Positions 21,045 to 23,222 of a stretch of DNA of 64,000 nt are shown here, in pieces; within the stretch, counting starts at the first letter, position 1; each line of letters opens with the position of its first letter. Both the position numbers and the translations under genes were made by a program. This DNA is from an uncultured Candidatus Saccharibacteria bacterium (GTDB lineage: Bacteria; Patescibacteriota; Minisyncoccia; Phycocordibacterales; UBA9973): positions 3,697 to 67,696 of the forward strand of contig CAZKPK010000001.1 in the NCBI GenBank assembly GCA_964554645.1. Direction: 5' to 3'. The notes under the pieces are model-generated. The model was not told the origin of the DNA. It searched no databases and saw only the letters and a program-made list of their open reading frames with translations.

Positions 21045-23222
21045 ATGGAAAAAATAGAAGCTAAAAAGAAAATACAGAAATTGCGAAGCGAAATCGCGCG
21101 ATTGAGAAATGCATATCACATAGAAAATGCGCCGAATGTTACCGATGACGTTTATGATTCTCTAACTCGCGAATTGAAAGAAATTTTACAAAAATATCCG
21201 GAGTTCAAAGACGAAAATTCAGGAGAGAACAGAGTGGCAGGCAAACCACTGGATAAATTTGTCAAGGTAAAACATCAAAATAGAATGCTCTCTTTAAACG
21301 ACGCTTTCTCTTATGAAGAGCTCTATGATTGGGAGAAAAGGGTAAAAAGATTACTTGGCGGTTTAACCGCCAAGTTAGAATATTTTTGTGAAGTAAAGTT
21401 TGACGGTCTGGCGGTGTCATTAATTTATGAAGATGGAAAATTTGCGCAGGGCGCAACTCGCGGAGATGGATTTGTTGGCGAAGATATAACCCAAAATTTG
21501 AAAACTATACATTCGATTCCTCTAGAATTACCCCCTCCCCTTAATAAGGGGAGGGTTGGGGAGGGGTCAATTCCCGCATTTCTAGAAGTTCGCGGCGAAG
21601 CGCTAATATCAAAAAAAACACTTATTTTACTTAACAAAAAAAATGCAAAAGAAGGTAAAGCGCTTTTTGCCAACACTCGAAATGCCGCCGCTGGAAGCCT
21701 TCGTCAGCTCGATCCGGAACTTGCCAAAGAAAGGCATTTAGATTTTGTGGCTTATGATTTAAACTTGGCGGTTAAACCGCCAAGTGGCGGTTTAACCGCC
21801 AAGTGGCCACAAAATCATTCTGCTAAACATGAAATGCTTCGAAGTTTAGGATTCAAAGTTGAAAAATTAGAGGCTAAATGCGAGAACTTAGAAAAAGCGA
21901 TATCTTTTACAAAAAAATTTGAAAAAATAAGACCCAATTTTCCATATGGCACAGATGGCATTGTAATATCCGTGGACGATTTAAAATTACAGGAAGTTTT
22001 GGGTGTTGTCGGCAAAGCTCCGCGCTATATGGTGGCCTTTAAATATCCAGCCGAAAAAGCAACTACTTTAGTAAAAGAAATTTTGATTAATGTCGGGCGC
22101 ACTGGCGTTTTAACACCGCTGGCAATTTTTGAACCAACCTTGGTCGCGGGTTCGCAAGTGTCCAAAGCGACTCTGCATAATATGGATCAAATAGAGCGTT
22201 TGGATTTACGAATCGGAGATACCGTGGTGATCGAAAAAGCGGGCGATGTCATTCCAAAAGTGGTGGAAGTATTGGCTCGGATGCGCACTGGCAAAGAAAA
22301 GAAATTTAAAATGCCAAATAATTGTCCGACTTGTGAGGGGAAGGTGGAAAAGAGAAAGTTGCCAGCGCAACAATCTGTCGCTTACTATTGTTCGAATCCA
22401 AAATGTCCAGCCAAGGATGAAAGATATTTGGAGCATTTTGTGTCCGTGTTTGAAATTTACGAACTTGGCCCAAAAATTTTAAGCCGTTTTAAAGATGAAG
22501 GACTGATTACCGACGCAGCCGATATTTTTACGCTGACGAAGGAGGAAATAGCGCCTTTGGAACGATTTGGGGAAAAGTCCGCAGAAAATATTATTAAAGA
22601 AATAGAAAGCAAGAAGAAAATTACGCTTTCCAAATTTCTTTGGGCGCTGGGGATACTCCATGTGGGGGAAGAGACAGCGCGAGATTTAGCGGATCATTTT
22701 GGAACTTTAGAAAAATTTATATCTTTAATTAGGCAAGAGAAAAGTTTGAATAATTCTCCCGCCTTCGCCCTCGGAGACAAAGGACAGGGGACCCACGGCT
22801 CCTTGAATTCTTCAAACTTTTCTCTTGATATAGAAAACATCGGTCCGGCGGTATCAAAAAGCCTTTATGATTTTTTTGGCGATAAGCGTAATTTAGATTT
22901 TTTAGAAAAGTTGCAAAAAAACGGGGTGGTGGTGGAAAAAATGGAAAAAAGAAAGGCGGGAAAATTTACCGGATTTACTTTCGTTTTAACCGGCACGCTC
23001 TCGCAAATGTCGCGCGAAATTGCCAAGGAAAAAATAATTTCTTTAGGCGGTAAAGTGGCGGGTTCTGTTTCTAAAAATACTTCTTATGTAATAGCTGGCG
23101 TTGAGTCCGGTCATTCCGACTCTGAGAGTCGTCAGACTCGAATGAGCTCCAAACTCAAAATTGCCGAAAGACTAGGGGTAAAAGTAATAAACGAAAAAGA
23201 TTTCTTAAATATGCTACACTAA
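21045..23222 (+). CDS. ligA: NAD-dependent DNA ligase
   Basis: 725 aa; adenylation KFDGLAV, OB fold, CPTCEG..C Zn finger, HhH, C-terminal BRCT (FVLTGTL). Confidence 0.97.
21354..21374. repeat. family C palindrome (single) inside ligA
   Basis: CTTGGCGGTTTAACCGCCAAG (21 nt), translated LGGLTAK. Confidence 0.9.
21531..21567. repeat. GC-rich palindrome inside ligA
   Basis: CCCTCCCCTTA-A-TAAGGGGAGGG (21533-21555) + TTGGGGAGGGG; translated [12 protein letters not shown] between conserved IPLEL and [10 protein letters not shown]. Confidence 0.8.
21764..21803. repeat. family C palindrome doublet inside ligA
   Basis: CTTGGCGGTTAAACCGCCAAG + TGGCGGTTTAACCGCCAAG; translated [13 protein letters not shown]. 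Confidence 0.9.
22734..22827. repeat. 94-nt hairpin element with 17-nt perfect terminal inverted repeats inside ligA
   Basis: CAAGAGAAAAGTTTGAA (22734-22750) vs TTCAAACTTTTCTCTTG (22811-22827); GC-rich centre; translated [31 protein letters not shown]. Confidence 0.75.
23112..23144. repeat. 33-nt alternating-hairpin insert in ligA BRCT region
   Basis: CGACTC-TGA-GAGTC-GTCA-GACTC; translated [11 protein letters not shown] between AGVESG and SKLKIA. Confidence 0.6.

Follow-up and report, generated by a model that had tools for sequence, protein, structure and literature searches.

Palindromic repeats that lie in frame within housekeeping genes and encode a peptide are known as Rickettsia palindromic elements, and protein-coding palindromes have so far been considered peculiar to Rickettsia (PMC10969869 and the titles that it cites). 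For bacteria of the Candidate Phyla Radiation (CPR, Patescibacteria), a literature search found no description of palindromic repeats of this type, or of repeats of this type resembling transposable elements of the miniature inverted-repeat class (MITEs). RPE-1 and its relatives, the subject of work by Ogata and colleagues in 2000 and 2002, are reportedly inserts whose positions were judged compatible with the protein fold. In this work we analyzed a stretch of 64,000 nucleotides (nt) from contig CAZKPK010000001.1 of an uncultured Candidatus Saccharibacteria bacterium (the window, in what follows), which carries at 21045-23222 of the + strand the gene ligA for an intact NAD-dependent DNA ligase of 725 amino acids (aa), recognized by its open reading frame (ORF) and by matches in PDB and Pfam. 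Within this gene, at 22734-22827, lies a hairpin-forming segment. We judge it probable that the segment represents a copy of a non-autonomous, multi-copy hairpin repeat found in Nomurabacteria/Paceibacteria (CPR) and here named FALG-core, which would be analogous to the Rickettsia palindromic elements. The family is large and apparently undescribed in CPR bacteria; its mobility is deduced from the distribution of its copies.

Anatomy of the hairpin and of its family

The hairpin is formed by two inverted arms, 22734-22756 and 22805-22827 of the + strand, which are 23 nt long with one mismatch (96% complementary), are separated by 48 nt and are perfectly complementary over their outermost 17 nt. 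A previous sequence-only reading of this DNA had given the same coordinates and lengths, and the 46 nt that it quoted from the GC-rich centre match exactly at 22757-22802. The centre itself, the hairpin loop (22757-22804), spans 48 nt with about 60% G + C, compared with 38% for the whole AT-rich window. Among the inverted repeats within 150 nt found in the 64 kb, the hairpin ranks third in length. Compared with dinucleotide-preserving shuffles, the + strand folds with − 37.4 kcal/mol as RNA (z − 4.3) and − 21.8 as DNA (z − 4.7), and the − strand with − 46.1 kcal/mol as RNA (z − 5.5) and − 26.7 as DNA (z − 6.6).

Whether related foldbacks exist elsewhere, which the sequence-only reading had left to be seen, is answered by the searches: no second FALG-core copy was found in the 64-kb window by mismatch search, self-BLAST or nhmmer, and many are present in other genomes. 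At least 120 stretches of JGI metagenome contigs match the core pattern (TTCGCCCTCGGAGNCAN{4,5}ACAGGG, 21 bases), and nhmmer gave 156 matches in the fetched loci, including two half-copies. The window copy is recognized by the family profile at 22747-22816 (nhmmer E 1.5e-20). Its family-conserved segment, 22748-22813, comprises the inner arms GAATAATTC and GAATTCTTC and the 48-nt core, which belongs to the coding-compatible subtype TCCCGCC…GGCTCCTT; this segment is identical at 60 of 60 positions to a copy that occupies another ligA site in the locus L019 (L and P numbers denote, respectively, loci from other genomes and LigA homologue proteins). The outer part of the left arm (22734-22747) is locus-specific.

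All family statistics refer to the loci fetched for this analysis, and the family set contains 123 unique copies, many of which are orthologous and hence non-independent. In most of them the core is 47-50 nt long; its commonest form is CTGAGCCTTCGCCCTCGGAGTCATAAGGACAGGGGACCCACGACTCTT, and the consensus reads …GCCTTCGCCCTCGGAGNCA(N4-5)ACAGGGRACC(C)CACGRC…. Every copy has arms that form an inverted repeat, with a median length of 21 nt and 93% complementarity. Over its inner 8-9 nt the arm is semi-conserved (AAAAATTT or GAAAAATTC); at arm positions 10-20 the information content is just 0.08-0.36 bit, yet these positions are paired in 80-92% of the cases, against 28-38% when the partners are shuffled. 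Each outer-arm position shows all four Watson-Crick pairs, and pairing falls to background by about position 24. In a MAFFT alignment of 75 copies (A2), 88.4% of the stem cells are paired versus 68.9% after shuffling, and 203 cells show a double change versus 67, a value that none of 500 shuffles reached; in the slid controls, stem pairing has its maximum at the true register. The architecture is that of a conserved GC-rich loop of about 48 nt on an AT-rich stem of about 21 bp, in which only the inner 8-9 bp are conserved and the outer half is free in sequence but pairing. The arms, which the sequence-only reading had named terminal inverted repeats, are not the conserved signature of the element: what is kept across the 123 copies is the centre together with 8-9 nt at the inner side of either arm.

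A further structure inside the core found no support: the pairs that RNAalifold draws within the core are invariant, with 21 core bases fixed by the pattern, and in the GAGTC/GACTC stem of the commonest core subtype the variable base changes without its partner. Over 20500-24000, and in five loci with coding- and intergenic-type copies, the covariance models of Rfam 15 matched neither strand at E ≤ 1, apart from tRNAs and chance hits to miRNAs.

Many copies at unrelated sites have in common the AT-rich arm consensus ATGAAAATTCAAAAAATTT / AAAAATTTGAAAAATTC, which argues that the arms arrived with the element and refutes, as a general rule, an origin of the arms as an inverted duplication of the target. 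Other copies have unique, GC-richer outer arms, and orthologous copies differ by several compensatory changes. An inverted duplication of the target may contribute to the outermost arm bases; in the window, the first bases of the left arm, CAAGA(G), coincide with the native Q-D/E codons of the empty sites described below.

Filled and empty sites in ligA and elsewhere

The best PDB match of the window LigA is 2owo (phmmer, E 1e-138). Pfam recognizes its adenylation, OB, HhH and BRCT domains, with a zinc finger match below threshold; the catalytic residues K118, D120 and G121, the cysteines of the zinc finger and the residues of HhH and BRCT all fall in invariant alignment columns. The nearest proteins in a collection of 5.8 billion are LigAs of 665-757 aa from Candidatus Nomurabacteria/Paceibacteria with 68-75% identity. 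The 94 nt of the hairpin encode residues 564-595, i.e. 32 residues that are absent from about 108 of the 120 homologues. The Pfam HHH_2 match is split by the element after residue 559, and the insert aligns between residues 538 and 549 of E. coli LigA; by these matches the element is placed inside the HhH domain and outside the HhH-BRCT linker. The sequence-only reading was thus right about the in-frame read-through and wrong in assigning it to the linker.

In an alignment of 121 LigA sequences (665-757 aa), the HhH site is empty in about 108 homologues, which read …SARQDLAEIDSIENIG…, filled in nine homologues in addition to the query, and occupied by short forms in two; two more filled loci, L006 and L011, came from scanning the GTDB representative genomes. 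The filled sites keep the native AGG-CAA-GA(C/G), and 18 nt are replaced by 90 nt, so that the net gain with respect to relatives without the element is 72 nt or 24 residues. As judged from this comparison, the element has been inserted into ligA, where it divides the HhH domain. An AlphaFold2 model based on a 60-sequence alignment assigns residues 566-599 a predicted local distance difference test score (pLDDT) below 50 and no secondary structure, and does build the HhH helices on either side; the insert is thereby modelled as a disordered loop in a fold-compatible position.

A purely local origin would also produce a palindrome here: replication template switching, or the correction of a quasi-palindrome, could have made it inside ligA as an immobile structure. 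Empty sites do bear a smaller, older palindrome (e.g. TTGCGTTAGG-CAAGA-CCTAACGCAA in L026), the outermost CAAGA(C/G) of the filled sites corresponds to native codons with its complement on the opposite side, and templated repair would preserve complementarity without selection. For the core this origin is refuted, given that more than 100 unrelated loci contain the 48-nt core with its inner arms; in addition, the inner 17 nt of the arms fit a family consensus that mnmA and intergenic copies display as well. We consider this origin very improbable for the element; it explains at most the extension or the maintenance of the outer stem.

The distribution of copies among ligA genes is patchy. Of about 200 relatives compared, 12 have the core at the HhH site of ligA, and besides a second ligA site at least 10 other genes contain it. 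The insert is kept in LigA orthologues of 68-76% identity, and the 13-mer TTCGCCCTCGGAG is found in L001, L003/4, L005, L006 and L011 at this same site of ligA, in L001, L019 and L023 at a second one (around aa 245), and in L010 and L049 outside ligA, in other genes. The query core differs from the copies at its own orthologous site, though identical to that of L019 at the other ligA site. At the aa-245 site the FALG-core element is present in 9 of 120 homologues scattered on a poorly resolved tree, and in other homologues the site is occupied by different repeat families. The neighbour-joining tree of LigA is star-like, and the patchy presence of the element on it is only suggestive as to a single or a repeated gain. 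Sister sequences at the aa-245 site show remnants of the arms alone, e.g. NLAKNSSSDLQ. Copies within one contig are more similar (0.85) than copies from different contigs (0.77). Outside ligA, the gatC-gatA junction also shows both states: in the empty genomes the stop and the start are adjacent or overlapping, and in the filled genomes the element is the entire spacer.

Three side observations concern these sites. In L119 (7776-7990) an intergenic FALG-core copy and its flank are tandemly duplicated, giving two copies of identical sequence with a spacing of 111 nt. Another GC-rich insert (QPAR…GG, up to 21 residues) is carried by P0023, P0026 and P0071, as well as by L041 and L066, a few residues upstream of where FALG-core lies. 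At the aa-245 site of LigA unrelated inserts occur, e.g. in P0030 and P0055, with HETQAFFRYGLFEASKSPEVGSSSLAKPLQKAVFHGP.

The proposal that ligA is a hotspot for insertions held up: about ten length-variable sites exist in the LigA alignment, and the five palindromic segments of the window gene, all of which were recovered, occupy five of them. Besides the hairpin, these segments are, all on the + strand, a short, perfect palindrome of family B, ACTTGGCGGTTTAACCGCCAAGT (stem 11, loop 1), at 21353-21375, a site near aa 107; a segment at 21525-21573 (CCCTCCCCTTAATAAGGGGAGGG and neighbours), corresponding to aa 161-177; two overlapping family-B palindromes at 21763-21804, which lie at the aa-245 site that bears FALG-core in other genomes; and a GAGTC/GACTC palindromic segment at approximately 23103-23139, a 12-residue insert in the BRCT domain. 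The palindrome ACTTGGCGGTTTAACCGCCAAGT is also found at the orthologous ligA place of L007 (10311-10329); other copies of the segments 21525-21573 and 23103-23139 were searched for and none was found. Three of these four sites (residues 168-173, 247-251 and 688-699) also have a pLDDT below 50.

Coding and intergenic copies

Intragenic copies, defined as lying well inside an ORF of at least 150 aa, number 39 at 14 distinct sites: two each in LigA, MnmA and LeuRS, one each in the CCA-adding enzyme, PheS, PheT, RsmH, an AspRS-like protein and a GlcD-like oxidase, and two in unnamed proteins; in the metagenome contigs the host genes were named from flanking peptide motifs and not from family searches. 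All 39 are sense-oriented and are read in the phase TTC-GCC-CTC (F-A-L), and the alternative frames are open in 4-26 of them. They belong to the stop-free subtypes TGGCG… and TCCCG…. The intergenic copies, which represent two thirds of the total, are mostly of the CTGAG…/TTGAG… subtypes, which give a TGA in the frame used by the coding copies. Given that the frame is open, that the length is divisible by three and that the stop subtype is excluded from genes, the element is predicted with confidence to be translated as part of LigA, and one peptide expected from read-through is AFALGDKRTGDPRR. The segment does not look like an intron, an intein or a bypass element: all intragenic copies have an open frame, the same one throughout, and a length divisible by three, and no intein or intron features were seen.

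The single frame and the similar peptide of all 39 intragenic copies, together with the retention of the insert in LigA orthologues of 68-76% identity, would also be expected if the peptide were a module selected for a function in LigA and other enzymes. In the seven orthologous copies of the HhH site (six obtained through LigA protein homology and L160 through the pattern scan), the core reaches a third-codon identity of 0.89, compared with 0.53-0.56 in the ligA flanks and with 0.85 for the core overall. Since third-codon identity of the core exceeds both of these values, the constraint, or the homogenisation, acts on the nucleotides and not on the peptide. Compensated internal frameshift variants (GDKRTGDPRR) are tolerated, two thirds of the copies are intergenic and most of these carry a stop in the coding frame, AlphaFold predicts an unstructured loop, and the majority of LigA orthologues have no insert. 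Selection for the peptide itself seems to us, in consequence, a highly unlikely explanation.

The intergenic copies begin about 0-20 nt after the upstream stop and finish 8-15 nt before the downstream ATG, filling the spacer between the stop and the ribosome-binding region of the next gene. This precise placement is one of the reasons to consider that the hairpin could be a cis-acting signal of benefit to the host, which shows the core loop to a conserved CPR protein or RNA; variants of this idea are a site for cistron processing or punctuation, a polar replication or recombination signal, and a structure of the antisense strand, with the intragenic copies as tolerated spill-over. Several observations fit such a signal, and those on the core, the orientation and the folding also weigh against the selfish repeat that we favor. 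Orthologous copies keep the core across hosts whose synonymous sites are saturated, a conservation beyond that of a decaying selfish insert, which suggests ongoing selection or repeated homogenisation. Compensatory change maintains the stem in nearly all copies, and stem length is tight around 21 bp. Copies between tandem genes are strongly biased in orientation (41 co-oriented versus 7), and in 75 of 86 loci the motif lies on the G-rich strand; gene direction and GC skew run together in the fetched loci, so that replication and transcription are inseparable as causes. The two strands also differ in folding: stem mismatches on the motif strand are A·C in 72 cases and G·T in 14, which are G·T/G·U wobbles on the complement, and the complementary strand is the more stable in 117 of 123 copies (means − 35.7 versus − 28.0 kcal/mol). 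This bias of mismatches and folding is unpredicted by a simple model of a single-strand transposon acting on the lagging-strand template, and it hints that folding takes place on the strand opposite the mRNA, pointing to a single functional strand; alternatively, it could reflect selection against a stable hairpin in the mRNA.

Further points against a mobile repeat come from the searches. No autonomous parent or linked transposase emerged from the clustering of ORFs near the copies, which gave only orthologous host genes (obg, gatA, gatB and the GlcD-like gene) and a RAYT-like gene that is not enriched there (7 in 0.86 Mb, versus 8 in 1.47 Mb of homology-fetched ligA loci); no search aimed at insertion sequences (IS) was made. 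No target-site duplication was detected, the best flanking direct repeats being equal to those of a swapped-flank control, in a test where the boundaries are fuzzy in AT-rich DNA and a 2-nt duplication would escape. No viral contig matched the FALG-core pattern, the window carries a single copy, and the invariance of the 21 core bases fixed by the search pattern is in part an artefact of the search.

Other features are difficult to reconcile with a host signal. Close relatives differ in whether a given site holds the element, and the empty sites function; 14 sites lie within essential genes, where a use in processing or binding is not obvious; half-copies and arm-only remnants exist; the density is uneven, from one copy in this 64-kb window to three in 11 kb (L123); and no Rfam family matches. 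We nevertheless keep this explanation, although unlikely, as the main alternative: the core is extraordinarily conserved, the length of the stem is fixed, the copies are placed precisely between genes and the two strands are asymmetric.

Our preferred explanation, a selfish hairpin repeat, would operate as follows. The element would spread through a folded single-strand (hairpin) intermediate, with the enzyme encoded elsewhere, and alleles that carry the insert could be transferred between relatives through homologous recombination. Complementarity of the arms would be kept by selection on the hairpin or by hairpin-templated repair, and the core could be lost through slippage from one to the other of the two GAATTC hexamers where stem and loop meet, leaving arm-only palindromes. 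A bolder proposal, to which we give a rather low probability, is that these copies are neither decaying selfish DNA nor common MITEs and represent a new hairpin class: a conserved 48-nt loop on a stem of free sequence, which is folded and selected as single-stranded DNA or antisense RNA, on the complement of the mRNA, and persists even in essential genes. If true, it would be a CPR-specific, genome-wide cis-acting signal or self-propagating structure that imposes a fixed peptide on host proteins.

Other repeats of the window and comparison with known systems

The window contains a RAYT-like Y1/HUH transposase ORF (34085-34780, + strand), recognized by Pfam Y1_Tnp (E 5e-4) and NCBIfam REP_Tyr_transpos (E 5.5e-12), both below the cut-offs. 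The perfect palindrome TCCCATAGGTC(A/G)GACCTATGGGA flanks this gene at 34063-34085 and 34768-34800, and a third copy lies in frame within it, right after the HFH motif (34370-34392). Ten other genomes (L124, L026, L060, L006, L171, L086, L010, L013, L059 and L083) have their own genome-specific palindrome beside or inside a RAYT-like gene, and a copy in the middle of the gene is also present in L124, L006 and L086. RAYT-like genes occur in the window and in 15 fetched loci, the short flanking palindromes reproduce the classic arrangement of repetitive extragenic palindromic (REP) sequences with their RAYT, and HUH enzymes act on single-stranded hairpins, which would suit the architecture of FALG-core; the element could, in principle, be a cognate REP or REPIN mobilised by this enzyme. 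The flanking palindromes, however, are genome-specific and unrelated to the core or the arms of FALG-core, whose core is the same across those genomes; there is no enrichment of RAYT-like genes near the copies; and in REPs it is the stem that is conserved and the loop that is small, contrary to what is observed here. We therefore attach very little probability to a mobilisation by the RAYT-like protein.

Other repeat families share the window. Family C, GC-rich palindromes (CCCATAGGTCTGACCTATGG), is found at 14690-14732 and, at the RAYT-like gene that it flanks, at 34061-34087, 34369-34394 and 34765-34803; family D, also GC-rich (TCCGCCCAAGGCGGATCCGCC), is found at 16130-16166, 18406-18435 and 56142-56166. 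Family B (ACTTGGCGGTTTAACCGCCAAGT) has three copies in ligA and two more in a 1223-aa ORF (50120-53791; copies at 53546-53597), where it is read …GGLTAK…. Families B, C and D look like REPs. Family A is a hairpin repeat (GATTCTCCTCTTGAGGAG…CCCCTCAAGAGGGGAAT) that is read through at 30992-31076 in a PheT-like ORF (29439-31367), at the exact site of the FALG-core element in the L010 orthologue (16005-16100); since this site bears either family A or FALG-core, one permissive spot hosts unrelated repeat families. Further family A copies are located at 8391-8437, 9030-9112, 9510-9557, 15957-16059 (intergenic) and 59552-59595; two copies make up most of the Arg/Pro-rich N-terminus of a small ORF (9010-9522), and the 20-mer CCACCCCTCAAGAGGGGAAT of this family is also present in L019, L022, L037, L052 and L078. 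As for the neighborhood of ligA, a tRNA gene (23326-23410; Rfam tRNA, 49 bits) lies just 3’ of it, and on its 5’ side, at about 9.6-21 kb, there is a conserved cluster of genes for a type IV pilus / type II secretion system, with T2SSE ATPases, T2SSF, a prepilin peptidase and N-methyl pilins, which is syntenic in the relatives L001, L003 and L005.

The family would constitute an abundant counterpart, in CPR bacteria, of the in-frame protein-coding palindromes. In genomes as tiny as these, additional DNA in the genes of a ligase, tRNA synthetases and tRNA-modification enzymes is unexpected; it accounts for part of the length variation of CPR housekeeping proteins and calls for caution before such insertions are named functional domains. 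The architecture, with its loop, covarying stem, single frame, subtypes and strand asymmetry, bears on how hairpin DNA moves or is maintained and on its use by the host, and the copies can serve as presence/absence markers for strains and recombination in uncultured CPR populations.

Among the systems with which FALG-core can be compared, the likeness to integron attC sites is conceptual only: a folded single strand, structure over sequence and one functional strand. attC sites have conserved ends and a variable centre and form cassette boundaries beside an integrase, and none of that context is found at the FALG-core copies. DNA uptake sequences (DUS of Neisseria) and uptake signal sequences (USS of Pasteurellaceae) are oriented, over-represented motifs that also occur in genes, in preferred frames, and as intergenic inverted pairs, and they spread by recombination and not by transposition; they are 10-30 nt long and arise by point mutation, whereas FALG-core consists of insertions of 70-90 nt. 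To our knowledge, no uptake bias has been described for CPR. With REP, BIME and REPIN sequences FALG-core shares the presence of hairpin-forming repeats between co-directional genes. In contrast, REPs are 20-40 nt long, with conserved stems and tiny loops, and are tied to their own RAYT, and the 48-nt loop of FALG-core is common to genomes with different REPs.

Bacterial MITEs (Correia/CREE, ERIC, RUP, BOX) are a further comparison. Like them, FALG-core is a small dispersed repeat without coding capacity, with inverted ends, mostly intergenic, with occasional in-frame fusions and with presence or absence between strains; its copies are small, multiple and dispersed over 14 gene sites and many intergenic ones, with empty orthologous sites. 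What defines a MITE is that its terminal inverted repeats are conserved, that direct target-site duplications flank it and that a related IS exists; the outer ends of FALG-core are unconserved, and the assignment to this class is not supported, since neither conserved termini nor target-site duplications were found. Of the MITE-sized foldback suggested by the sequence-only reading, what stands is an inserted, repeated foldback DNA; the MITE itself does not, as neither target-site duplication nor parent element was found.

The closest known kind appears to be the Rickettsia palindromic elements, with which FALG-core was set side by side by description and not through the consensus of any RPE. 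In both, palindromic repeats are found in intergenic regions and in frame within unrelated housekeeping genes, with a conserved peptide, a segment that is read through and no transposase of their own; FALG-core lies in frame in several unrelated ORFs, and its position in LigA is predicted to be compatible with the fold. The hosts differ, being CPR Paceibacteria in one case and Alphaproteobacteria in the other, as does the length (about 90 nt versus about 100-150). Unlike the Rickettsia elements, FALG-core conserves the loop, while its stem is free but covarying, it has an intergenic subtype that carries a stop, and its orthologous cores are conserved far past synonymous sites. FALG-core is, for these reasons, best filed as a probable analogue of the Rickettsia palindromic elements and not as a member of the series RPE-1 to RPE-10.

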